From Thermodesulfobacteriota bacterium (lineage in GTDB: Bacteria > Desulfobacterota > Binatia > Bin18): a stretch of DNA of 64,000 nucleotides. Made by a program: the position numbers and the translations under genes. Positions 39,631 to 49,951 of the stretch are shown here, piece after piece. How positions within the stretch are numbered: position 1 is the first letter of the stretch; the number at the start of each line of letters is the position of its first letter. The notes beneath the pieces are model-generated. The model made no database searches and had not been told where the DNA came from. It saw only the letters and a list, made by a program, of their open reading frames with translations. The DNA lies in the NCBI GenBank assembly GCA_964291405.2, contig OZ219926.1, forward strand, positions 1,568,001 to 1,632,000. Reading direction: 5' to 3'.

Positions 39631-40707
39631 ATGGCGCTCTTTGAACGCATGCAGGCAGAAGACCACGAACAGGTGGTCTTCTGCACGGACCGCAACGCTG
39701 GCCTCACCGCCCTGATTGCCATCCACGATACAACCTTAGGACCCGCTTTGGGTGGCATCCGTATGCGGGCATATGCCAGTGAGGATGACGCGGTAACCGA
39801 TGTCCTGCGCCTCTCCCAGGCCATGACCTATAAAGCCTCCCTGGCCGGTCTGGAGTATGGCGGCGGTAAGGCAGTTGTCGTTTCCCCTGAGACACCTCCC
39901 AAAAGAGAGATAGTGTTTCGTGCGCTGGGCCGCGCCATAGAGTCTTTGGCGGGCCGTTATATTCCAACCGAAGACATGGGTACGACGACCGCAGACATTG
40001 AACACGTCCGGGCAGAGAGTCGGTTCGGGGTCGGACGAGCGGAAGCATTTGGCGGAGGCGGAGACCCCTCCCCCATGACGGCCTGGGGCATCTTCTGTGG
40101 CCTGCGGGCGTGTCTTGAAGAAACGGACGGCAAGGCCGAATTCCAGGGCTTGACCGTAGCCCTGCCCGGTCTGGGGAAAGTCGGCTACTCCCTGGCCCAA
40201 TACCTCCACCAAGCCGGAGTGCGGCTGATAGTCGCGGATGTGGATGCAGCCCGGGCCGACAAAGCCCGAACCGAGCTCAGCGCCGCGATTGTCGATCCGA
40301 CCGATATTCTGACTCAGCAGTGTGACATCCTCGCCCCCTGCGCCGCGGGTGGCATTTTCAATACGGAGACGATCCCCCAACTCCAGTGCCGGATTATCGG
40401 CGGTGGGGCTAACAATCAGTTACTCACCGAGGCTGACGGGGATGCGCTTCACGCGCGCGGCATTCTGTATGCGCCGGACTTTGCGATTAACGCCGGTGGA
40501 CTGATTAACGTCGCGGACGAGTTGGGTCCCGGTGGCTATCGTCGCGAGCGGGCCAAGGCCAAAACCGAGCAGATTTACTCCACCCTGAAAACGCTTTTTG
40601 CCCAAGCCAAGCAGCGAGACGGCCCACCCCATCGTCTGGCCGTTACTCTGGCCCAGGAACGCATCCGGGCTGTGCGGAATTTGCGGCGGCTGAATACGGC
40701 GGCGTGA
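39631..40707 (+). CDS. Leu/Phe/Val dehydrogenase
   Basis: HDTTLGPALGG, MTYK, GGGKAV, GDPSPMTA and GLGKVG. Confidence 0.92.
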   Translation: MALFERMQAEDHEQVVFCTDRNAGLTALIAIHDTTLGPALGGIRMRAYASEDDAVTDVLRLSQAMTYKASLAGLEYGGGKAVVVSPETPPKREIVFRALGRAIESLAGRYIPTEDMGTTTADIEHVRAESRFGVGRAEAFGGGGDPSPMTAWGIFCGLRACLEETDGKAEFQGLTVALPGLGKVGYSLAQYLHQAGVRLIVADVDAARADKARTELSAAIVDPTDILTQQCDILAPCAAGGIFNTETIPQLQCRIIGGGANNQLLTEADGDALHARGILYAPDFAINAGGLINVADELGPGGYRRERAKAKTEQIYSTLKTLFAQAKQRDGPPHRLAVTLAQERIRAVRNLRRLNTAA

Positions 40708-40761
40708 GGGGTCGTTTCCAACCTTTCCTCGCAAATCCCTCTTTGCTATAGCCTACTTACT

Positions 40762-41835
40762 ATGAAAAGCGCTCTCTCTGCCTGGCTTGAAAGCCAGGGC
40801 GCATCGCTCACAGATGATCGCGGCGTTGAACTGCCGAACTCCTTCACCAACCCGCAAGACGAATACGCAGCCGTCTGTGAAAAGGTGGGGCTGATTGACC
40901 TGTCCTTTCGCACCCAGGTGAAATTCACGGGAGAAGATCGCAGCGATTTCCTGCAGGGCATGCTGTCCAACGATGTCAAAGCCCTGCGGCCCGGCGATGG
41001 CTGTCCAGCGACGCTGCTGACGGAGCAGGGACGGATTGTGGCGGACTTGCGTGTCTATGCCGAAGAGTCGGCAATTCTCCTCGACCTTGATACCCGTATC
41101 AAGGAGAAGACGGTTGGAGCCCTCGACCGTTTTATCATTGCCGACGATGTGGAGATCGAAGACCTGAGCGCCCATCAGGTGACCATTGCGGTCCAAGGCC
41201 CGACTGCGGCACAGGTCCTGGTGACAGCCGGTCTCTCTTCCTTGCCGGAGCGAAAATTACAGCATCGGGACACAACGATTGCAGATGTCCAGGTCCGCGT
41301 GATTCGCTCCGACCAGACCGGTAAGGGTGGCTATGAGTTCCACGTTCCCGGCGACCGGGCACCCGTCGTCTGGCAGGCCCTCGCTCAACTCGACGGGCTG
41401 CTTCCCGTCGGCCACACTGCGCTGAATATACTGCGGGTTGAGGCCGGCATTCCGTGGTATGGCCTCGATATGGACGAGGACAGAATCGTGCTGGAGGTTG
41501 GCCTCGACCAAGCCATTAGTTTTAATAAAGGCTGCTATCTGGGCCAAGAAGTCGTTGAGCGGGCTTCTGCACGCGGGCGTATGAATCGTCAACTCAGCGG
41601 GTTTCTGCTGCAAAATGAGGCGCAGGCTGCCTTGCCGACACGAGGCGACCGACTGGTGAAGGACGACAAAGAAGTCGGCTGGCTGACCAGCGTCACAACC
41701 TCCCCAACGCTGGGCCGGTCGATTGCCCTGGGCTATGTCCGGCGCGAACATGGCGAGCCGGGCACCCGGCTGCGGATTGACAGGCCGGATATGGACATGA
41801 TAGCCGAAGTGATCAAGTTACCGTTTCTACAGTAG
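40762..41835 (+). CDS. YgfZ/GcvT-family folate-binding protein
   Basis: ISFNKGCYLGQE YgfZ signature. Confidence 0.88.
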   Translation: MKSALSAWLESQGASLTDDRGVELPNSFTNPQDEYAAVCEKVGLIDLSFRTQVKFTGEDRSDFLQGMLSNDVKALRPGDGCPATLLTEQGRIVADLRVYAEESAILLDLDTRIKEKTVGALDRFIIADDVEIEDLSAHQVTIAVQGPTAAQVLVTAGLSSLPERKLQHRDTTIADVQVRVIRSDQTGKGGYEFHVPGDRAPVVWQALAQLDGLLPVGHTALNILRVEAGIPWYGLDMDEDRIVLEVGLDQAISFNKGCYLGQEVVERASARGRMNRQLSGFLLQNEAQAALPTRGDRLVKDDKEVGWLTSVTTSPTLGRSIALGYVRREHGEPGTRLRIDRPDMDMIAEVIKLPFLQ

Positions 41836-41873
41836 ATATTACTCGTAGAGGCATATCACGACAGGAGGGATCA

Positions 41874-42014
41874 ATGGCACAACTGGGTAAACGCTATATG
41901 TGTGAAGAGTGCGGGACTGAGGTACTCTGCAACAAGCCGGGCGACGGTGCACTCAACTGCTGCGATAAAGAAATGCCGCTCAAGGAAGCCAAGCCGCTTC
42001 CATCGTCTGACTGA
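41874..42014 (+). CDS. 46-aa desulforedoxin-like metalloprotein with PLPSSD tail (not in ORF track)
   Basis: AGGAGG RBS; MAQLGKRYMCEECGTEVLCNKPGDGALNCCDKEMPLKEAKPLPSSD has CxxC-x15-CC. Confidence 0.85.
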   Translation: MAQLGKRYMCEECGTEVLCNKPGDGALNCCDKEMPLKEAKPLPSSD

Positions 42015-42088
42015 TACCGGTCTGTTGCAAACTGTACACCTAACAGTGAGGAGCGAGGGAAACCTCGCTCTTTCCTTTTCCGGGGGCT

Positions 42089-43636
42089 ATGTCTTCCGCA
42101 CCCCACACGGCTGACCTGCTGCTCTATGGTGGGCATGTTCTCACCTTTGACCCAAACCGGCCTGAAGCCCAGGCCATTGCTATTGCGGCAGGAAAAATCC
42201 TCGCGATTGGCACCGAGGAGGAACTGCGCCCCTTTGTCTCGCCGAAAACACAGGCCTTACCGTGCACCGGGAGAACGGTACTTCCAGGCTTCATCGACCC
42301 TCACCTGCATCTCTTTGCCTGGACGAGCCGCTACTGCGGTGCAGACCTGAGTGCAGCCCGATCAATTGCCGAAATCCAGTCTCAACTCCAGGCACGCCTG
42401 GAGACCCTCGGCTCGCAAGACTGGCTGCGCGGCTATGGCTATGACGAATTCTTTCTCCACGAGAAACGCCCTCCGAATCGACACGACCTTGACGCCATCT
42501 CGACCGAGCAGCCTATCATCCTGCGTCATCGGACCGGCCATGCTGCCGTTCTGAATGGCGAAGCGCTCCGGCAAACCGGCATCCACGCCCAATTCACCCC
42601 TCCAAAGGGCGGAAACGTCGAACGCGACGCCAGTGGAGAACCAACGGGCGTGGTCTACGAATTGGAGTCGTTTCTACGACCTGTCATACCTCCGCTCCCG
42701 GCACAGGAATTTCAGGCCGGATTACAACAGGTCAACAACGAATTACTCAGAAACGGGGTCTGTTCGTTTCACGACGCCAGCGCCGGCAATACGCTTGAGG
42801 CTCTCGGACGCTTCGCCGCCTTACGAGCCAACGGCGTCATACGTCCCCATGCAACCGTTATGGTCGGGGCTGAGGCGTTCTCTCAGGTGCGAGAGGCTGG
42901 CCTCACCGCCTTTGACCGGTCCGGCCAAGTTCGGCTTGGCAGTATTAAAATCATGCTGCATGAAAGCGGAGGCGAGTTGTATCCCGCGCCGGACGACCTG
43001 GCTGAAATGGTCTGGCAGGTGCATCGCCACGGGTTTCAGGTCGCCATCCATGCGGTTGAAGAAGTCCCCGTCTGCGCGGCCCTCGAAGCGATTCAGCAGG
43101 CGCTAGAACGGTTGCCTCGCCACGATCATCGTCATCGGATTGAACACTGCACGCTCTGTCCTCCACCGTTTCTCGACACCCTGGCCGAGACAGGCTGTGC
43201 GGTGGTGATGCAGCCGGGCTTTCTGCATTTTTATGGCGATAAATATGCAGCAGAAGTTGATACAGATGTGCACGATTGGCTGTACCGGGCAAAAAGCCTC
43301 CGGGATCACAACATTTCCGTTGTCGGCAGCTCAGATTGTCCGATCGCCCCACAGGCCCCATTGGTGGCGATTCAGGCTGCCGTTACGCGCCAGTCCCACA
43401 CTGGAATGGTTCTCAATCCCGCCGAACGTTTGTCCTGTCTTGAAGCGCTCAGTCTTTTCACTCAAGCAGGAGCCTGGGTCGGGTTTGAGGAAGATCAGAC
43501 CGGCAGCATCAGCCCTGGTATGCGTGCGGATGTGGTTATCCTCGACGGCGACCTGACGGGGCTCCCGGCTGAAGCGCTCAGCCGGGTAAACGTCCAGACA
43601 ACAATCATTGACGGCCAGATTGTCTATTCGGCATAA
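42089..43636 (+). CDS. Amidohydrolase_3 (YtcJ-like) protein
   Basis: PGFIDPHLH, QVAIHA, RHRIEH, SSDCP and GSISPGMRAD. Confidence 0.88.
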   Translation: MSSAPHTADLLLYGGHVLTFDPNRPEAQAIAIAAGKILAIGTEEELRPFVSPKTQALPCTGRTVLPGFIDPHLHLFAWTSRYCGADLSAARSIAEIQSQLQARLETLGSQDWLRGYGYDEFFLHEKRPPNRHDLDAISTEQPIILRHRTGHAAVLNGEALRQTGIHAQFTPPKGGNVERDASGEPTGVVYELESFLRPVIPPLPAQEFQAGLQQVNNELLRNGVCSFHDASAGNTLEALGRFAALRANGVIRPHATVMVGAEAFSQVREAGLTAFDRSGQVRLGSIKIMLHESGGELYPAPDDLAEMVWQVHRHGFQVAIHAVEEVPVCAALEAIQQALERLPRHDHRHRIEHCTLCPPPFLDTLAETGCAVVMQPGFLHFYGDKYAAEVDTDVHDWLYRAKSLRDHNISVVGSSDCPIAPQAPLVAIQAAVTRQSHTGMVLNPAERLSCLEALSLFTQAGAWVGFEEDQTGSISPGMRADVVILDGDLTGLPAEALSRVNVQTTIIDGQIVYSA

Positions 43637-43700
43637 AGAGTAAACGTGTCCAGCATCTCATGCTATATTGGAGGACACGTTTACTCTTTAAAGAACATGT

Positions 43701-44420
43701 ATGCCTTCTCCCGCAGTCCTGTACGAAAAAGACGGCAGTGTCGCCGTTGTCAGCCTCAACCGGCCTGACATGCTCAACGCCTATAACGTGGAGATGCGGG
43801 ACGATTTGCACGAAATTCTTCAGGCCGTCCGGGACGACCCTGAGGTCCGGGTCATGATCCTGCGCGGCGAAGGCCCGGCCTTCTCTACCGGCGGAGATGT
43901 TTCAGAGTTCGGTTCAGCGCCCTCTCCGGTGCGGGCGCGTGAAGTGCGCTGGCAACGGGATAACTGGGGGCTGCTGTTACGGCTGCCTCAGCCGACCATT
44001 GCAGCGGTCCACGGCTATACCGTCGGCGGCGGGATGGAAATGGCGCTGCTGTGTGATTTGTGCATTGCCGCGGACGATACGGTCTTTTTTCTACCGGAAA
44101 CCGGTCTGGGCATGATCCCTGGGGTAGGCGGGACGCAGACCGCGCCCCGTGCCATCGGGCTAGGGCGCGCCCTAGACATGGTATTCACCGGAAAGCGACT
44201 GAAGGCCGACCAAGCCCTCCAGATTGGCCTGGTAAATCAGGTGGTTCCCTTGGCTACCCTCTTGACTGAGGCCAAATCTCTGGCATACACACTGTCCCGT
44301 TGTAATCCAACAGTTGTAAGGCTGGCAAAACGGGCCGTCCGACAGGGCGCTGACCTAAATTTATCCGATGGCTTACGACTGGAACAAAATCTATTTGCAC
44401 TGGTAAAGGAGCAGGCATGA
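43701..44420 (+). CDS. Enoyl-CoA hydratase/isomerase family protein
   Basis: SLNRP, FSTGGD, GGGMEMALLCD and LPETGLG. Confidence 0.9.
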   Translation: MPSPAVLYEKDGSVAVVSLNRPDMLNAYNVEMRDDLHEILQAVRDDPEVRVMILRGEGPAFSTGGDVSEFGSAPSPVRAREVRWQRDNWGLLLRLPQPTIAAVHGYTVGGGMEMALLCDLCIAADDTVFFLPETGLGMIPGVGGTQTAPRAIGLGRALDMVFTGKRLKADQALQIGLVNQVVPLATLLTEAKSLAYTLSRCNPTVVRLAKRAVRQGADLNLSDGLRLEQNLFALVKEQA

Positions 44421-45970
44421 ATACGTCACAGTTCATCGGTATTCCGGGCATGATGTTTCCGGACCAAGAGGTCCTGGCTTTCGAAGGTAACCGGTTGACC
44501 TATGGAACACTGCTGGATCGGGTCAAACGGCTGGCCAGCAGTTTGCGCGACCAAGGAATTCAGGCGGGTGATCGTGTGGCGATCTTGCAGACAAACTGCA
44601 ATCAGTACATCGAGGCCTATTATGCCACAGCGATGCTGGGTGCGACTTTTGTGCCGCTGAACTATCGGGCCAAGCCCCCGGAATTGGAATATATGATTAC
44701 CGCGGCGGAGACCAAGCTGCTGTTTGTGGGCGATCGCTATATCGACCTGGTCAATAGCCTCAAGCCCAATCTCGACTGCGTGGAAAAATATGTCACGATC
44801 GAAACGCGGCGTGACGATATGCTGCACTACGACGACTTTATTGAGCAGGGCTCGCCGGACATCGAAGAGGCAGAAGTCGATGAGGGCGACCTGTCCATCC
44901 TAATGTATACCAGTGGCACGACGTCTTTGCCCAAGGGTGTGATGCTGACCTACGGCGGATTCACCAACTACGTCATCGGCACCGTCGAGATGGCGGACGG
45001 GACCCCGCGCGGCACCTCGCTGCTGTGCGCGCCGCTCTATCATATTGCCGGCACGATGAACATCATGACCGCGCTGTGGAACGGCCGAAAGATCGCCATC
45101 CTGCGTCAGTTCGATACCAAGGAGTGGCTGGCGGCCGTTCAGAACGAGCAAGTGACGCACGCCTTTGTCGTGCCCACGATGATGAAACAGCTCATCGATC
45201 ACCCCGAGTTCTCGAACTATGATCTATCGAGTTTGCAGAACGTCTCCTATGGCGGCGCTCCCATGGCCTTTCCCGTCATTCGCAAGGCCATTGATATGTT
45301 CCCGGACTCGACCGGTTTTGTGAATGCCTTTGGCCAGACCGAAACAAATTCGACCCTGACCGTCCTCGGACCGGACGACCATAAGCTGAACGGCACGCCG
45401 GAAGAAGTCGAGCGCAACCTGAAGCGTCTGACCTCGGTCGGCAAACCCCTGCCCGACGTGGAAGTCCAGGTTCTTGATGACGATAATAAAGAGATGCCGG
45501 CCAATGAGATCGGCGAGGTAGTCATTCGCACCCCGCGCGTGATGAAGGGCTACGCCAATCAGGAAAGCGCGACCGCCGCCTTGTTGGATGAAAACGGCTG
45601 GCTGCATACTCGCGACATGGGTTATATCGACGAAGACGGCTATGTCTATCTGGTTGGCCGCAAGGACGACATCATCATTCGTGGCGGTGAAAACATTGCA
45701 CCGGCTGAAATCGAAGCGGTCCTGCACGCCCATCCGGCAGTCGACGAGGCGGCCATTATCGGTGTGCCTGACGTCGATTGGGGACAAAAGATCGTGGCCT
45801 TTGTCGCCCTCAAGCCAGGCCAGACAGCTACCGCGGACGAAGTTGGCGACTTCTGTAAGGAACGGCTGGCCAGCTTCAAGAAACCAGGGGAGATCAATTT
45901 CCTGGACGAGTTGCCGAAGAACCCGTTAGGCAAAGTCCTCAAGAAAGAGCTGAAAGCGCAGTACGAATAG
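44417..45970 (+). CDS. Adenylate-forming (acyl-CoA ligase family) enzyme
   Basis: MYTSGTTSLPKG, AFGQTE, GRKDDIIIRGGENIAP and PKNPLGK. Confidence 0.92.
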   Translation: MNTSQFIGIPGMMFPDQEVLAFEGNRLTYGTLLDRVKRLASSLRDQGIQAGDRVAILQTNCNQYIEAYYATAMLGATFVPLNYRAKPPELEYMITAAETKLLFVGDRYIDLVNSLKPNLDCVEKYVTIETRRDDMLHYDDFIEQGSPDIEEAEVDEGDLSILMYTSGTTSLPKGVMLTYGGFTNYVIGTVEMADGTPRGTSLLCAPLYHIAGTMNIMTALWNGRKIAILRQFDTKEWLAAVQNEQVTHAFVVPTMMKQLIDHPEFSNYDLSSLQNVSYGGAPMAFPVIRKAIDMFPDSTGFVNAFGQTETNSTLTVLGPDDHKLNGTPEEVERNLKRLTSVGKPLPDVEVQVLDDDNKEMPANEIGEVVIRTPRVMKGYANQESATAALLDENGWLHTRDMGYIDEDGYVYLVGRKDDIIIRGGENIAPAEIEAVLHAHPAVDEAAIIGVPDVDWGQKIVAFVALKPGQTATADEVGDFCKERLASFKKPGEINFLDELPKNPLGKVLKKELKAQYE

Positions 45971-45975
45971 TAAGC

Positions 45976-46000
45976 AGGGGCGTCCTTTTGGACGCCCTTT
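45976..46000 (+). terminator. Intra-operon hairpin
   Basis: GGGCGTCC-TTTT-GGACGCCC followed by TTT. Confidence 0.5.
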
Positions 46001-46010
46001 CTGTTAAGGT

Positions 46011-46778
46011 TTGGGTGTGTCCGATCTGGTGTATGAGATTCAAGGGAAAGTGGCTTGGCTGCGCTTGTCGTGTCCGGGTCAGGGCAATCGGCTCACGCCC
46101 AGGATGGATCAGGAGATAGCATCCGTCTGCCAGGCCATCGAGGAGGCCGAGCCGGTCGAAATCGCTGTCCTGACCGGCTCGGTCCACAGCTTTTGTGAGG
46201 GCCTGACACAAACGGCCAACACCGCGCAGAGAATTCGGGAGCAGTTCGGTTCCATCCAGTGCGTCGAGGCGCTTGCGGCCATCACAAAACCGACGCTGGC
46301 GGTTCTCAATGGCAACGCGTTCGGACTCGGGCTGGAGTTGGCCCTCGCCTGCGACCTCCGTCTGGCCGTTTCGACGGCCCGGTTCAGCCTCCCCCAGGTT
46401 ACCGAGCAGATGATTCCTTTTGGCGGAGGGACGCAGCGCCTGCCGCGTGTAGTCGGACAGGCCAAGGCGTTGGAGATCATCCTCACCGGCAAACAGCTTG
46501 ACGCCGCTGAGGCGTATCGCATCGGACTGGTCAACGAAGTGATTGCCGCGGACGATCTTTTGACCCGTGTTGACGAGGTCCTGTCCGGTCTGTTAGGGAA
46601 AGGCCCTGTCGCTTTACGACTCGGTAAAGAGGCGGTATACAAAGCAATGGACCTGACGCTCGACCAGGGGGTGCGGTTGGAAGAAGACTTGTATGCCCTT
46701 CTCCAGACAACCCAGGATCGGGCCGAGGGCGTGGAATCTTTCTTAGCCAAGCGGAAACCTCGATTTACCGGACGCTAA
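46011..46778 (+). CDS. Enoyl-CoA hydratase/isomerase family protein (divergent)
   Basis: GLGLELALACD, GGTQRLPR and DRAEGVESFLAKRKPRFTG; start uncertain (46011 or 46017). Confidence 0.85.
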   Translation: MGVSDLVYEIQGKVAWLRLSCPGQGNRLTPRMDQEIASVCQAIEEAEPVEIAVLTGSVHSFCEGLTQTANTAQRIREQFGSIQCVEALAAITKPTLAVLNGNAFGLGLELALACDLRLAVSTARFSLPQVTEQMIPFGGGTQRLPRVVGQAKALEIILTGKQLDAAEAYRIGLVNEVIAADDLLTRVDEVLSGLLGKGPVALRLGKEAVYKAMDLTLDQGVRLEEDLYALLQTTQDRAEGVESFLAKRKPRFTGR

Positions 46779-46800
46779 GAGAAAAACAGGAGGCAACAGT

Positions 46801-46917
46801 ATGGCAACCCAACTCGGGAAAATGTATCTGTGTGGAAGCTGCGGTGTGCAGGTCATCGTGACCAAAGGTGGCGATGGCTCGCTCAAGTGCTGCGGAGCCG
46901 AGATGCAGAAAAAATAG
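46801..46917 (+). CDS. 38-aa desulforedoxin-like metalloprotein (not in ORF track)
   Basis: AGGAGG RBS; MATQLGKMYLCGSCGVQVIVTKGGDGSLKCCGAEMQKK has CxxC-x15-CC. Confidence 0.85.
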   Translation: MATQLGKMYLCGSCGVQVIVTKGGDGSLKCCGAEMQKK

Positions 46918-46978
46918 TCTCTCGTGTGTAGCTCTCAGGGAGAGCAAAGGACAGGGAGCACGATTGCACTCTCGATAC

Positions 46979-47008
46979 AGGGCACCGCTTGCAGGGTGCC
47001 CTTTTTTT
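46979..47008 (+). terminator. Intrinsic terminator ending the operon
   Basis: AGGGCACC ... GGTGCCCT followed by TTTTTT. Confidence 0.75.
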
Positions 47009-47133
47009 ATCACGACGCCCAGAAGCGACCTTGCAAGACCGCTAGACACTCAGATAGCATGGCCTGCACTGCTCAGGGTCATGACAAATAACCGCTCGCA
47101 TGAATCCCGAGTGAAGCGTGGAGGTTGACAGCC

Positions 47134-47430
47134 ATGCCGGCCCCTATTTCCGCCGATGAAATACAGTCCCGCATTGTCGCGGCCCTACCTGACGCGCAGG
47201 TGCACATTCGCGATTACACTGGTGGTGGGGATCACTACGAAGCCGTTGTCGTGTCCGCGGCGTTCGACGGCAAGAATGCCGTCGCCCGGCACCGCCTGGT
47301 GTATGGCGCCCTCCAGGAGGCTATGGTTGAACGCATTCATGCCTTAGCCCTCAAGACTATGACCCCACAAGAATTTGAGGCCGATACCCGGCAGTCCGGC
47401 CTGGTGAATATCGAAACGCACAAATCATAA
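47134..47430 (+). CDS. BolA family protein
   Basis: GGGDHY, RHRLVY and IHALALKT. Confidence 0.9.
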
Positions 47431-47455: not shown

Positions 47456-47779
47456 ATGGCAGACGGCGTACAAGCGCATATTGACGAGACCGTGAAGAAC
47501 AACAAAGTCCTCATCTATATGAAGGGCAATCGCACCTTCCCGATGTGCGGCTTCTCAGCCGCAACCATTCAGATTTTCGACTCTTTGGGTATGCCGTACG
47601 AGACCGTCGACGTATTGCAGGACCCTGCCGTACGCGACGGCATCAAGCGCTATTCAAACTGGCCGACCATTCCGCAGGTGTATGTGAACGGCGAATTTAT
47701 CGGTGGCTGCGACATCATCCAGGAAATGCACAGCCGCGGCGAGCTTGAGCCCATCGTGCGGGCTGCCCTCGAAGGCTAA
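47456..47779 (+). CDS. grxD: Monothiol glutaredoxin Grx4
   Basis: PMCGFS and WPTIPQVYVNGEFIGGCD. Confidence 0.95.
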   Translation: MADGVQAHIDETVKNNKVLIYMKGNRTFPMCGFSAATIQIFDSLGMPYETVDVLQDPAVRDGIKRYSNWPTIPQVYVNGEFIGGCDIIQEMHSRGELEPIVRAALEG

Positions 47780-47826: not shown

Positions 47827-48033
47827 ATGCGCTACAAGATTGCCCTGTACCAGTCTGAAGAAGGCTATAGCGTTTCCTGCCCTGGTCTCCCGGGTTGCTG
47901 GTCGCAAGGCGCAACCGAAGCGGAGGCCCTGGAGAATATTCAGGATGCCATCAGAGAATATCTCACCGCTGTCGAAGAGTTACTTCAGGACACGCCCAAC
48001 ACCGAAGTACGAGAAGTAGACATTGCCGTGTAA
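47827..48033 (+). CDS. hicB: HicB-like antitoxin (short form)
   Basis: YSVSCPGLPGCWSQGATEAEALENIQDAIREYL. Confidence 0.88.
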   Translation: MRYKIALYQSEEGYSVSCPGLPGCWSQGATEAEALENIQDAIREYLTAVEELLQDTPNTEVREVDIAV

Positions 48034-48035
48034 CG

Positions 48036-48248
48036 ATGCCAAAGCTGTCTGGGGTCAACCATCAGCAGGCCATCCGCGCGTTGGAGAAGTCTGGTTTTCG
48101 TATCATTCGCCAAGGGAATCACGTCGTGATGTCAGACGGCGTCCGCATTCTCACTATCCCACGACATAATCCTGTCCATGCCATTACCATGGGCGGTATC
48201 GTACGGGACGCGGGGTTCACCGTTGAAGAGTTCCGAAGATTATTGTAA
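48036..48248 (+). CDS. hicA: HicA-like mRNA interferase toxin
   Basis: ALEKSGFRIIRQGNHVVM...TIPRH. Confidence 0.88.
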   Translation: MPKLSGVNHQQAIRALEKSGFRIIRQGNHVVMSDGVRILTIPRHNPVHAITMGGIVRDAGFTVEEFRRLL

Positions 48249-48293: not shown

Positions 48294-48899
48294 ATGCTTC
48301 TGTCGAACATTCCTGAACTTCGTAATTATCCGAAAGTCTTAGATTTCGTTGAAAACCATCTTTCGATGCAATTCGGGGATATCCGCTCCATGCTGCGGCT
48401 TCCGCTTCCAAGGCTTAGCATAGATAATGGCTGCAATTTCGCCGTAGCGGCGGTCCTATGTAACCTTGTCAGCGGGATTTCGGTGACGATCTTCATGCCC
48501 ACGAACTCTACTCGGATAAATCGTAAAGGAAACAAAATATGGATTGGTCCAGGCGAGGCTTTCAAAAAATTACTCGAAAATTACTACCCTTGGGAGTCGG
48601 GAGATAACCCAACGGACGGAGCCAAAGCCTTGTATGACTTGTTCCGAAACCCTCTTGCCCATGCGCTTGGAGTCCACAGCAAGTCTTCTTATCAAATTCA
48701 CATTAGGAAGAACCCTCTCCAAAACTGGTTAAGTCCGGGTATTTCCGGGTCTGGAATAAAATGGGAGGTTGTTGCTGAAGGCTTTTACAGAGACGTATTT
48801 CATATGTTCTGGAATCTGACCAAAGATAATCAGCAGATGACGGATGCAGAGCAAAGATTTTCAAATAGGAATATCATGTGGAGGGAAGGAAAACCCTAA
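48294..48899 (+). CDS. Hypothetical protein with HEPN-like RxxxxH motif
   Basis: GAGGAG RBS; helical pattern with LYDLFRNPLAH. Confidence 0.6.
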   Translation: MLLSNIPELRNYPKVLDFVENHLSMQFGDIRSMLRLPLPRLSIDNGCNFAVAAVLCNLVSGISVTIFMPTNSTRINRKGNKIWIGPGEAFKKLLENYYPWESGDNPTDGAKALYDLFRNPLAHALGVHSKSSYQIHIRKNPLQNWLSPGISGSGIKWEVVAEGFYRDVFHMFWNLTKDNQQMTDAEQRFSNRNIMWREGKP

Positions 48900-48979
48900 G
48901 TTGTAGGGATAAAAAGGAAACCTGGGACATCTCTGAGCGAGAGCACGATTCAGATTGCGGACTAACAGGTAGATACACA

Positions 48980-49951
48980 ATGACAAAAATCGCAATACCC
49001 TACACTCCGCCCGACCTTGGACCAAACTCTGATTTCCAAGACAAGATTTTTCGGAAGAACAGAGAATCTGTCTTGAGCGAATTACGTTGTCTGTCCGGCA
49101 TTCCTGAGATTGTAAGGACTTTGAATCCGGATACCGTGTATAAGATTGTCTGCTCTCCAGAAGGAGGGAAACTCTATACGGATACCGCCGGCAATCTAAA
49201 AGGGGTGTTCTATAAAGATAGGAAGATTATACAGCACGCCAAATTACGGGTTGTTGGACCATCTCTTGTCAAATGCGCTACAGCAATAGGCTCCCAGATT
49301 CTTCTGATAAGCATCGCCATGCAATTAAATCGCATAGAGAAAGAGATCCACAAAATAATCGAAGGTCAGCATGATGATAGAATATCTGAGATTTATTCGG
49401 GGGTAAGTCAGTACAAGCTGGCGATGAGAGCGCGAGATATTGAACGGCAGTCAAGGCTAGTTGAGAACGCAATCCAAACAGTGACCACAGGTATCGAAAA
49501 AACAGCCCGATCATTAAAAAGACAAATAGCGGAGATGCCCAAAACTGAATATGGTTTGAGGGATGATTGGCCAATCTTTGATAAAGATAGAACTAAATGG
49601 GCTGAAGAGAAGTTCAGGTTCGTCGAAGAATCATTTCAAGCTTGCATTATCGGAATTCAAACCCTGGCCGAATGTTACGCGGCAATCAATGAACCACAGA
49701 TAGCGGTGGTGGCGTTGAAAGAGAATATAGACAAGCTAAGCGATAGTGAAATTGCACTGGCGGCTAAAAAAGCCCGATTGATCCCATTCCGAGAAAGAAA
49801 AGGGTTACCTGAACAGCCCTTGAGAGCTTTCCTGGACAGCAAACGCTTGCTTCTTGATAACATAGAAAGATGCGGTCTTTTGGCAAACAACGAACCCGAT
49901 TGTATAGAGATAGAGATCAAACCTGTTGAGCTACTGGAAGGAGGGAAATGA
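48980..49951 (+). CDS. Hypothetical alpha-helical/coiled-coil protein
   Basis: 323-aa ORF in AT-richer DNA with a hydrophobic segment ATAIGSQILLISIAMQL followed by heptad-like helices. Confidence 0.7.
   Translation: MTKIAIPYTPPDLGPNSDFQDKIFRKNRESVLSELRCLSGIPEIVRTLNPDTVYKIVCSPEGGKLYTDTAGNLKGVFYKDRKIIQHAKLRVVGPSLVKCATAIGSQILLISIAMQLNRIEKEIHKIIEGQHDDRISEIYSGVSQYKLAMRARDIERQSRLVENAIQTVTTGIEKTARSLKRQIAEMPKTEYGLRDDWPIFDKDRTKWAEEKFRFVEESFQACIIGIQTLAECYAAINEPQIAVVALKENIDKLSDSEIALAAKKARLIPFRERKGLPEQPLRAFLDSKRLLLDNIERCGLLANNEPDCIEIEIKPVELLEGGK

Follow-up and report, generated by a model that had tools for sequence, protein, structure and literature searches.

The window analyzed here, 64,000 nucleotides from a Thermodesulfobacteriota bacterium, contains two very small genes on the forward strand. 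The first, dx1 (41874-42014), encodes a 46-aa protein with a GKRY motif, a C-x2-C pair, a CC pair and the C-terminal tail KEAKPLPSSD, while the second, dx2 (46801-46917), encodes a 38-aa desulforedoxin-fold microprotein without the tail. Read from the sequence, an AGGAGG ribosome-binding site lies on the same strand 5 nt upstream of the dx1 ATG (41863-41868) and another 7 nt upstream of the dx2 ATG (46788-46793). Both microproteins have all four cysteines in the C-x2-C ... C-C arrangement, and both exceeded the 23-bit Pfam cut-off for the desulforedoxin domain, PF06397, in a profile search (dx1, 24.1 bits; dx2, 29.6 bits), as did no other protein in their own genome. The original prediction of two desulforedoxin-pattern microproteins, each with its own AGGAGG site, was thus borne out. 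Scores against TIGR00319 (17.9 bits for dx1 and 21.9 bits for dx2) fell below the NCBIfam cut-off of 36.05. When a profile built from dx1 homologs was compared with solved proteins, only desulforedoxin/desulfoferrodoxin N-terminal chains matched (E ~1e-3).

Between the two genes, all on the forward strand, lie an Amidohydro_3 (YtcJ-like) metal hydrolase gene (42089..43636; PF07969, 267.7 bits), whose closest solved chain is the uncharacterized hydrolase 3icj, a crotonase, ECH1 (43701..44420; ECH_1, 189.4 bits), an ANL-superfamily (FadD-like) adenylate-forming ligase (44417..45970; AMP-binding, 293.6 bits; AMP-binding_C, 82.1 bits) and a second crotonase, ECH2 (46011..46778; ECH_1, 156.1 bits). 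The final 4 nt of ECH1 overlap the start codon of the ligase. ECH1 has the motifs GGGME and LPE, which we take to be the sites of the two catalytic glutamates of canonical hydratases. ECH2 has LPQ, with Gln at the second of these positions, and its orthologs read LPQ, LTQ or FPQ wherever the motif was located (28 rows gave no motif match). The ligase scored 496.4 bits against PRK06187 (cut-off, 476), its closest solved chain is FadD5 (8r2q; E 6e-83), and its best solved matches over the whole length are ordinary acyl-CoA synthetases. Consistent with the earlier observation that the unit holds no enzyme in need of an electron carrier, we found no oxidoreductase or superoxide reductase among the Pfam-matched genes between dx1 and dx2, which are limited to Amidohydro_3, two ECH_1 and AMP-binding. 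The unit is closed, as predicted, by an intrinsic-terminator-like element on the forward strand (46979..47009) made up of an 8-pair hairpin (46979-47002; 6 G-C pairs) and a TTTTTTT run. The scan as a whole gave 6 terminator-like sites where shuffles predict 5.6, so this element has to be judged on its own quality. It is a strong terminator, and it separates dx2 from the bolA and monothiol-type glutaredoxin (Grx) genes that follow in the window and in close relatives.

The microproteins do flank the hydrolase, crotonase and ligase genes, but the description of an operon bracketed by them, with dx1 as its first gene, is too simple. A YgfZ/COG0354-like folate-binding protein gene (40762..41835, forward strand; GCV_T, 165.3 bits; GCV_T_C, 65.3 bits; TIGR03317 YgfZ domain, 77.7 bits; cut-off, 49), whose product contains KGCYLGQE, presumably the YgfZ signature, ends 38 nt upstream of dx1; the two genes share their orientation and the gap holds no terminator-like site, so the unit may begin further upstream than dx1. 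In addition, dx1 is followed by a hairpin (42048..42081, forward strand) with an 11-bp stem, a GAAA loop and a T-rich tail (minimum free energy, -28.6 kcal/mol over 86 nt; z, -2.04), and many Binatia loci (for example, L006, L028, L037 and L042) have a G+C-rich hairpin of different sequence with a T run at the same place. Judged by its form, this hairpin is probably a terminator-like or attenuator-like element. Finally, in one genome (G001), the ECH-ligase-ECH-dx2 set lies 3.5 Mb away from dx1, which has YgfZ and the amidohydrolase as its neighbors. It may therefore be doubted that dx1 is the first gene of one simple operon.

The PLPSSD tail proved essentially invariant and is always C-terminal in homologs: [PA]LPSSD forms the terminus of 118 of 120 near-length homologs, and 113 of 150 representatives end in small-small-Asp. 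Together with the mostly synonymous codon differences among relatives and the fact that dx1 and dx2 are the sole PF06397 matches above the cut-off in the genome, this indicates that the two ORFs are not chance occurrences. Compared with the window, 44 dx1 sequences showed 574 synonymous and 147 nonsynonymous codon differences, third codon positions accounting for 662 of the 830 changed bases, and 61 dx2 sequences showed 656 synonymous and 444 nonsynonymous differences; by this measure, both genes are under strong purifying selection. All 28 dx2 orthologs in the alignment are 38 aa long, with 17 invariant columns. Contigs from three RNA-library runs span dx1, and contigs from four span dx2. Homologous ORFs in public collections are named "hypothetical protein" or after the Pfam domain, and full-text literature searches returned nothing describing the tailed microproteins; dx1 and dx2, along with their tandem and fused relatives, constitute a large, unnamed and unstudied protein family.

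In line with the original prediction, linkage of the family to a ligase and crotonases was seen in several phyla and in three layouts. In Binatia the order is YgfZ-dx1-(amidohydrolase)-ECH-ligase-ECH-dx2. Going upstream from dx1, a YgfZ match is reached within 400 bp in 79 of 80 loci; the amidohydrolase gene is directly downstream of dx1 in 71 of 78. Among the 60 loci with at least 6.9 kb of downstream DNA, 57 have ECH1, ligase, ECH2 and dx2, the other three having the ECH-ligase-ECH-dx2 set elsewhere in the same genome, and 6 lack the amidohydrolase. Other classes of the same phylum have a tandem layout, ECH-ECH-ligase-dx2-dx1: in eight genomes, a dx2-like match is followed 15-195 nt later on the same strand by a tailed dx1-like match, and the full ECH2-ECH1-ligase-dx2-dx1 order is present in five of the eight loci. 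The third layout is a fused protein of ~100 aa with a dx2-like repeat first and a tailed dx1-like repeat last, found in Rhodococcus, Mycobacterium, Streptomyces, sphingomonads (Sphingobium and Sphingomonas) and metagenomes. The two-repeat PLPSSD proteins next to CoA ligases that the original prediction had placed in actinobacteria and sphingomonads therefore exist, and the occurrence of tandem genes and fusions in the same order supports the proposed two-domain, heterodimeric unit. Of 15 plasmid records, 13 have a same-strand ligase immediately beside the fused gene, and of 58 metagenome loci whose downstream sequence extends for 500 bp or more, 48 have a ligase directly downstream; the other neighbors vary. 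The Amidohydro_3 hydrolase is a recurrent member of the set, occurring in all three layouts (4 of 8 tandem loci, two plasmid records and 13 of 80 metagenome loci, a number of limited weight because many of these loci do not extend far enough), with relatives of 30-41% identity near tandem and fused forms, although it is absent from most plasmid loci.

The desulforedoxin fold raises the question of whether dx1 and dx2 are simply classical desulforedoxins, acting as Fe(Cys)4 electron or iron carriers, possibly tied to Fe-S maintenance genes (YgfZ upstream, BolA and Grx downstream) and merely syntenic with the ligase set. The four cysteines and PF06397 scores of both ORFs, the near-constant YgfZ neighbor, the nearby bolA and Grx genes and the split genome, in which dx1 stays with YgfZ and dx2 with BolA-Grx, are all compatible with this. 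However, YgfZ is a conserved upstream neighbor of dx1 in Binatia and not part of the module outside this group (no YgfZ match in 89 fused-type loci), BolA and Grx do not follow dx2 in deeper Binatia loci, the strong terminator intervenes between dx2 and bolA, and the unit lacks an oxidoreductase. Moreover, within the 113 tail-bearing representatives, GKRY is present in 96, the first Cys pair in 68 and the CC pair in 58. Among the fused forms from metagenomes (76 distinct sequences), the tailed repeat is without the four metal cysteines in every case, but each sequence still terminates in LPSSD or LPASD. Roughly one-third to one-half of tail-bearing homologs have thus lost the metal cysteines while keeping GKRY and the terminal small-small-Asp, which, as far as conservation can tell, makes a redox role for the family unlikely and leaves a classical desulforedoxin function highly improbable.

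Desulforedoxin and the N-terminal domain of desulfoferrodoxin are the closest known proteins. The AlphaFold2 model of a fused, Cys-poor homolog was confident (pLDDT, 92.5; pTM, 0.82), and its first repeat superposed on desulforedoxin 1cfw_A with an rmsd of 1.0 Å over 36 of 36 residues (Z, 3.4, a low value attributable to the small size of the chain). The known chains (PF06397; 1cfw/1dxg, 1dfx and 1vzg) share the profile and C-x2-C ... C-C pattern of dx1 and dx2, and desulforedoxin is a dimer, which matches the two-halves logic seen here. Unlike desulforedoxin, the halves in this family are different, one of them bearing the GKRY loop and an invariant 10-residue C-terminal tail, many members lack any metal ligands, and the genes are tied to an acyl-activating set rather than to sulfate-reducer redox genes.

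The linked ligases also group together in a quick tree: a branch with an SH-aLRT of 92 divides all 54 of them from a background of just six unlinked ANL ligases. The window ligase groups with those beside fused forms, and the linked ligases have 11 signature residues in common around a segment that follows the A5 motif. Taking these observations together, we tentatively favor a model in which a single small protein with the desulforedoxin fold is made up of two halves, dx1 and dx2. It would be a heterodimer in the window, is encoded by tandem genes or as a single fused chain elsewhere, and would serve as a dedicated, noncatalytic component of a module comprising the FadD-like ligase, two crotonases and often the Amidohydro_3 hydrolase. 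The dx2-like half would be a scaffold and the dx1-like half the working surface, formed by a conserved Lys, the GKRY loop, which is invariant, and the flexible tail (...K-P-L-P-S/A-S-D), whose C-terminal carboxylate is free. Such a surface would dock on the ligase, or on a ligase-hydratase assembly, and be required for ligase activity, stability or substrate choice; the Cys4 metal site of the window copies would be structural rather than redox active. Such a role would resemble that of the MbtH-like proteins (PF03621), small partners of NRPS adenylation domains that are likewise noncatalytic and encoded beside an ANL adenylate-forming enzyme. An MbtH-like activator had been proposed as an alternative for this locus, and the gene linkage fits it, but there is no Pfam, sequence or profile match, the fold differs, and the putative partner is a stand-alone ligase in beta-oxidation-like clusters rather than an NRPS.

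Some features count against this accessory model. In the window and in all other Binatia loci, the ligase gene is touched by neither microprotein gene; the split genome places dx1 far from the ligase set; and no fusion to the ligase was found, with all 120 longer proteins listed lacking PF00501 and the 150 representatives being at most 196 aa long. In Binatia, dx1 instead neighbors YgfZ and the amidohydrolase or ECH1 (gaps of -16 to 41 nt in deep-branching loci), and dx2 neighbors ECH2. An adjacent ligase is also missing from 10 of the 58 metagenome loci, 6 of which have an ECH match beside the fused gene, and from 2 of the 15 plasmid records, so the partner could be a crotonase or the whole assembly. 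One alternative, accordingly, is that the microproteins partner the ECH1/ECH2 pair or the amidohydrolase and might assemble a hetero-oligomeric hydratase, in line with the replacement of the second catalytic Glu by Gln in ECH2 orthologs. We consider this improbable, since the tandem pair comes after the ligase rather than after an ECH, and in fused records the ligase is adjacent while a crotonase is often several genes away or not seen in the flanking sequence covered.

The gene linkage behind the accessory model would be identical if the protein were a posttranslational regulator, its tail turning the ligase on or off as a sensor or pseudo-substrate plug; in versions that have the cysteines, this switch would answer to metal or redox state. 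The two carboxylates of a terminal Asp are reminiscent of a dicarboxylic acid substrate, and the hairpin after dx1 could set its dose apart from that of the enzymes. This alternative also seems to us improbable: about half of the family does without the Cys ligands, and sensing of metal or redox state can therefore not be a general function.

The original prediction had favored a carrier, by analogy with the amino-group carriers LysW and ArgW, which like dx1 are small metal-finger proteins with a flexible acidic C-terminal end, encoded with a ligase and a hydrolase. Here, the ANL ligase would activate the C-terminal Asp carboxylate of dx1 or load an acid onto the tail, the crotonases would act on the tethered intermediate, and the Amidohydro_3 enzyme would release the product. 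No feature of the family is conserved more strongly than the free small-small-Asp end, the ligase is the constant neighbor, and the hydrolase is recurrent. The best solved match to the clade-specific ligase segment was 6sq8/6h1b at an E value of 0.08, a weak lead only, the former being the amide bond synthetase McbA according to PMC11747319. The hallmarks of LysW are, however, lacking. LysW is partnered by LysX, an ATP-grasp ligase, and has an acidic tail with an EDWGE-type motif at its end, whereas the present unit has an ANL ligase and no ATP-grasp ligase, a KPLPSSD tail and a desulforedoxin fold rather than a zinc ribbon. Crotonases stabilize thioester enolates, chemistry that normally requires a thioester, which a Ser ester or Asp amide would not provide, and since several homologs have V, A or G in place of the extra Cys of the LC[NT]K motif, this residue cannot serve generally as a thioester site. 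Given also the resemblance of the full-length ligase to ordinary acyl-CoA synthetases and the loci without the amidohydrolase, a carrier function is unlikely.

A broader parallel to the accessory model is offered by the DUF35/OB-fold zinc-ribbon partners of SCP-x-type thiolases, which act in steroid and aromatic side-chain degradation and are also small accessory subunits of a CoA-thioester enzyme. Pairs of an "OB-fold domain-containing protein" and a thiolase were located in the same plasmid clusters as fused forms. DUF35 is unrelated in fold and sequence, has a different partner enzyme and lacks a conserved C-terminal tail. The tail of the dx family, acidic, invariant and free at its C terminus, is less typical of a plain structural subunit than of a recognition tag or covalent handle, which also counts against an accessory role. 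Its invariance suggests a new helper or handle for FadD-type ligases.

Both desulforedoxin-like microprotein genes were found in the window as the original prediction had described them, each with its own ribosome-binding site, at the two ends of a set of four genes. The first, dx1 (41874-42014, + strand), encodes 46 amino acids ending in the C-terminal tail KEAKPLPSSD, and the second, dx2 (46801-46917, + strand), encodes 38 amino acids and has no such tail; both appear in the open reading frame listing, and an AGGAGG stands 5 to 7 nt 5' of the ATG in each. Between them lie an Amidohydro_3 gene recognized by Pfam scan (42089-43636), a crotonase gene, ECH1 (43701-44420), an ANL-superfamily ligase gene (44417-45970) that shares its first 4 nt with the end of ECH1, and a second crotonase gene, ECH2 (46011-46778). 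A hairpin of 8 pairs followed by TTTTTTT (46979-47002) on the 3' side of dx2 supplies the expected terminator. The description of this set as an operon bracketed by the microproteins held only in part: four genes do lie between dx1 and dx2, but a YgfZ/COG0354-type gene on the same strand as dx1 (40762-41835) ends 38 nt upstream of it, and a terminator-like hairpin with an 11-bp stem, a GAAA loop and a T-rich tail (42048-42081) stands between dx1 and the amidohydrolase gene. At the 3' side of dx1, related loci also have hairpins followed by T runs, with sequences unrelated to that of the window, indicating that the structure is kept and the sequence is not. In deeper-branching relatives dx1 directly adjoins the gene after it or overlaps it (gaps of -16 to 41 nt). 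The hairpin 3' of dx1 could be an attenuator that gives dx1 a higher dose.

The gene upstream of dx1 scored 77.7 bits against TIGR03317 (cut-off 49), and its product contains KGCYLGQE, which we take to be the signature of the YgfZ/COG0354 family. We considered and rejected a dimethylsulfoniopropionate (DMSP) demethylation module consisting of a DmdA-like GcvT protein, a ligase and a crotonase, as the upstream gene reached 96.5 bits against a DmdA cut-off of 410 and passed the YgfZ domain model, and no acyl-CoA dehydrogenase was present. Downstream of the set lie a BolA gene (47125-47430) and a glutaredoxin gene (47456-47779), such that genes of Fe-S maintenance surround the ligase set on both sides. 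Just beyond the glutaredoxin gene is an adjacent pair encoding a HicB-like antitoxin (47827-48033; PF15919, 36.3 bits) and a HicA toxin (48036-48248; PF07927, 32.5 bits), followed by two open reading frames of 201 and 357 amino acids (48294-49951) with no Pfam match at E <= 0.01. At the other end, a gene of the Glu/Leu/Phe/Val-dehydrogenase family (39631-40707) precedes the YgfZ-type gene, as it does in close relatives; among NCBIfam models it scores best against the tryptophan dehydrogenase ScyB, at 348.9 bits and under the cut-off of 600.

Of the enzymes in the set, the ligase scored 293.6 bits for AMP-binding, 82.1 bits for AMP-binding_C and 496.4 bits against PRK06187 (cut-off 476), and the G505 and K506 of its conserved C-terminal G-K motif were invariant in 46 sequences. 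With both domains and the conserved lysine present, it is predicted to be an acyl-CoA synthetase of the ANL superfamily, and over its whole length it is closest to ordinary acyl-CoA synthetases, FadD5 among them. In ECH2 and its orthologues, a Gln takes the place of the second catalytic Glu of crotonases (LPQ, versus LPE in ECH1), and ECH2 may be a non-hydratase or a non-catalytic partner subunit.

Both microproteins scored above the Pfam gathering cut-off of 23 for PF06397 (24.1 bits for dx1 and 29.6 bits for dx2), and they are the only proteins of their own genome to do so; against TIGR00319 of NCBIfam they scored 17.9 and 21.9 bits, respectively, under the cut-off of 36.05. The C-x2-C and C-C cysteines occur in both and are invariant in our homologue alignments A1 and A5, and the sole solved relatives of dx1 homologues are desulforedoxin and desulfoferrodoxin (E about 1e-3). 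The desulforedoxin fold consists of two chains in one domain-swapped unit. In a model of a Cys-poor homologue of about 100 amino acids in which the two microproteins are fused (pLDDT 92.5, pTM 0.82), repeat 1 superposed on desulforedoxin 1cfw_A with an rmsd of 1.0 Å over 36 of 36 residues, at a Z score of only 3.4, while a Foldseek search of this model against the PDB gave no match at E <= 0.001. The profile match and the Cys4 pattern are thus shared with desulforedoxin, whereas many tailed relatives of dx1 lack the metal cysteines.

The original prediction had asked whether the tail is invariant and always linked to this ligase and crotonase subfamily. The tail was indeed conserved. A length-restricted homologue search returned 137 proteins; among the 120 listed, 118 have [PA]LPSSD as their C-terminus, and in the other two the stop is read through. 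A representative search of 1.84 billion sequences gave 466 matches at E <= 0.001; among the 150 listed, 113 have a small-small-Asp C-terminus, and 62 of these 113 are at least 80 amino acids long. The tail consensus of the family is K-[PA]-L-P-[SA]-S-D. Among the listed tail-bearing representatives, GKRY is kept in 96 of 113, the first Cys pair in only 68 and the CC pair in 58. The two-repeat proteins of about 100 amino acids near ligases that the original prediction had mentioned for actinobacteria and sphingomonads also proved to exist, as a fused form in which a degenerate, tail-less dx2-like repeat precedes a tailed dx1-like repeat. Each of the 76 distinct fused proteins encoded at metagenome loci has LPSSD or LPASD at its C-terminus and lacks the metal cysteines in its tailed repeat. 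One further locus of the same class as the window, L201 (G146:C8), encodes a tailed repeat that has no metal cysteines and keeps GKRY and KEAKPLPSSD, with a dx2-like stretch just upstream; as a Binatia-class copy, it indicates that cysteine loss is not confined to actinobacteria. Codon differences from the window were 574 synonymous versus 147 non-synonymous for dx1 and 656 versus 444 for dx2, and by such counts both genes are under purifying selection. A reading of dx1 and dx2 as RiPP precursors was rejected, since the whole peptide is conserved, maturase families were absent from the unit in a Pfam scan, and fused and tandem forms exist.

The linkage was borne out across three gene layouts, with exceptions at individual loci. 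For the bracket layout of the window, 80 genome loci were examined, with titles mostly of Candidatus Binatia. A YgfZ gene lies at most 400 bp upstream of dx1 in 79 of these 80, even at 32-45% identity, while the BolA-glutaredoxin adjacency is lost in deeper loci. The amidohydrolase gene directly follows dx1 in 71 of 78 loci. Where at least 6.9 kb of downstream sequence is available (60 loci), ECH1, ligase, ECH2 and dx2 are all present in 57, and the remaining three have the ECH1-ligase-ECH2-dx2 set elsewhere in the same genome. In one such Binatia genome (G001), the set is 3.5 Mb from dx1 with no second dx1 beside it, and dx1 stays with YgfZ and dx2 with BolA-glutaredoxin. The tandem layout, found in 8 genomes from other classes of the same GTDB phylum, has a dx2-like match and a tailed dx1-like match that share a strand and are separated by 15-195 nt. 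At five of these loci the order is ECH2-ECH1-ligase-dx2-dx1, with ligases 47-51% identical to that of the window; of the remainder, one has ligase-dx2 and then a second dx2-dx1 pair 2 kb further on, one is cut by a contig end, and in one, 1.6 kb without a match separates dx2 from ECH1. Four of the eight have an Amidohydro_3 relative of 37-41% identity nearby.

The fused layout was found by tblastn with the fused form in 19 plasmid records (Rhodococcus 12, Streptomyces 3, Sphingobium 2, Mycobacterium 1 and Sphingomonas 1) and, with a single protein query, at 80 metagenome loci, 58 of which have at least 500 bp downstream. An ANL ligase is directly adjacent to the fused gene, on the same strand and in either order, in 13 of 15 plasmid records examined, the exceptions being R. 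gordoniae and Streptomyces sp. N50, and a ligase 35-40% identical to that of the window over its full length lies directly downstream in 48 of the 58 metagenome loci. An adjoining ligase is missing from 2 of 15 plasmid records and 10 of 58 metagenome loci; at 6 of these 10, a crotonase match is next to the fused gene. Other neighbours of the fused gene vary and include CoA-transferases, SDRs, acyl-CoA dehydrogenases and a thiolase with its OB-fold partner. What stays constant from layout to layout is the ligase as partner, accompanied by crotonases and in many cases by an amidohydrolase. Among the 120 longer proteins listed in a fusion search, no ligase fused to a microprotein was found, and only one protein carried an enzyme domain (P0291, dx1 then Amidohydro_3; a single member on one contig); as its C-terminal third is of low complexity, it probably arose artefactually, by read-through or a frameshift, and was discarded.

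That tandem genes and fusions share the same order argues that dx2 and dx1 would form one two-domain unit. A role for this unit as an electron carrier, as the desulforedoxin-type cysteines might imply, is disfavoured on two counts: a third to half of the tail-bearing members have lost their metal ligands, and the unit contains no oxidoreductase. The invariant features, namely the GKRY loop, one Lys and the Pro-rich tail with its free small-small-Asp end, instead look like a docking or recognition surface, and for this reason we chose a reading in which dx1 and dx2 would serve the ligase/hydratase module as a dedicated component without catalytic activity. We put this forward tentatively, as somewhat short of an even chance; the heterodimer, its binding to the ligase and any effect on catalysis are parts that we infer. 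A complex prediction of dx2, dx1, two Zn and the ligase, with the proteins given as alignments and no controls, scored 0.04 and 0.06, where the mark was 0.32, and counts neither for nor against binding. Such a component would be MbtH-like in role only: MbtH (PF03621) had no match in dx1, dx2 or 10 homologues. MbtH-like proteins are encoded beside an adenylate-forming enzyme and bind it; the family here often adjoins an ANL ligase in the tandem and fused layouts, and this putative partner is not an NRPS.

The same tail conservation fits the scheme originally proposed, in which the tail, as in LysW, is loaded by the ligase and then acted upon by the enzymes of the module, and the recurring amidohydrolase, assigned the release step, fits as well. 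However, LysW and ArgW carry an acidic C-terminal motif of the EDWGE type whose terminal Glu is the attachment site, and KEAKPLPSSD is of a different kind. No ATP-grasp partner (LysX/ArgX/RimK) was matched by Pfam among 10 scanned window proteins, the only ligase being of the AMP-binding (ANL) type, and crotonase chemistry needs a thioester. An additional Cys in an LC[NT]K motif was rejected as a thioester site, since V, A or G takes its place in several homologues. We consider a LysW-like carrier improbable. It is about equally doubtful that the KPLP(S/A)SD-COOH end is itself a substrate or acceptor of the ANL ligase, to be adenylated, thioesterified or acylated, then worked on by the two crotonases in tethered form, with release or trimming by Amidohydro_3 as the last step.

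In a quick tree with long branches and a small background, a branch with an SH-aLRT of 92 separated the 54 linked ligases from 6 unlinked ANL ligases. The microprotein-linked ligases have in common a segment after the A5 motif, TLTVLGPDDH ... SVG[KR]PLP, at 45317-45490 of the window (ligase residues ~301-358). Eleven signature residues of the linked ligases sit in this segment, where most unlinked paralogues are gapped. Its best solved match is 6sq8/6h1b, at a weak E of 0.08; PMC11747319 identifies 6SQ8 as the amide bond synthetase McbA. As a pointer to carrier chemistry, we treat this match as a weak lead.

dx2 was covered by contigs of 4 RNA-library runs from 3 studies, labelled sponge or marine metagenome, and dx1 by 3 of those runs. 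Such runs may contain DNA and their contig depth cannot rank genes, while window parts they leave uncovered carry no information; the contigs are consistent with transcription of dx1 and dx2 and do not prove it. In 3 runs from 2 studies, the dx1 contigs end at 42038-42044, near the hairpin, two of them with loose ends, and we did not count these as evidence of termination. DNA near-identical to 40700-47100 (40-62% of sampled words) was present in runs of several studies that bear the label of a sponge or coral metagenome, and these labels suggest a host-associated marine lineage for the source of the window.

In the full-text literature, with subscription journals and supplements outside it, we found no published description of microproteins of the dx1/dx2 type or of their link to a CoA ligase, and all database names met for homologues were "hypothetical protein" or a Pfam domain name. 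What we rate as new is the re-use of the desulforedoxin fold, often without metal, as the putative tailed partner of an ANL-ligase module. ANL ligases provide the opening step of most CoA-dependent pathways of catabolism and lipid metabolism and have many uses in biocatalysis; apart from MbtH in NRPS systems, no small protein dedicated to them as a partner is known to us. The present microprotein family comprises hundreds of 50%-identity clusters and is linked to a single ligase clade through three layouts, and its free C-terminal tail is kept even where the metal site has decayed. The fused gene is present in cultured Rhodococcus, Streptomyces and Sphingobium strains, among them Rhodococcus sp. 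DK17, where it lies on pDK3 beside a class I adenylate-forming enzyme, and Sphingobium sp. RAC03. Were the tail a covalent handle, this would be carrier chemistry of a new kind, and a protein-handle pathway driven by an ANL rather than an ATP-grasp ligase, unlikely as we hold it to be, would span at least Binatia, Actinomycetota and Sphingomonadales. If dx1 and dx2 are instead an activator or specificity factor, this would explain why some linked ligases may be inactive when expressed alone.
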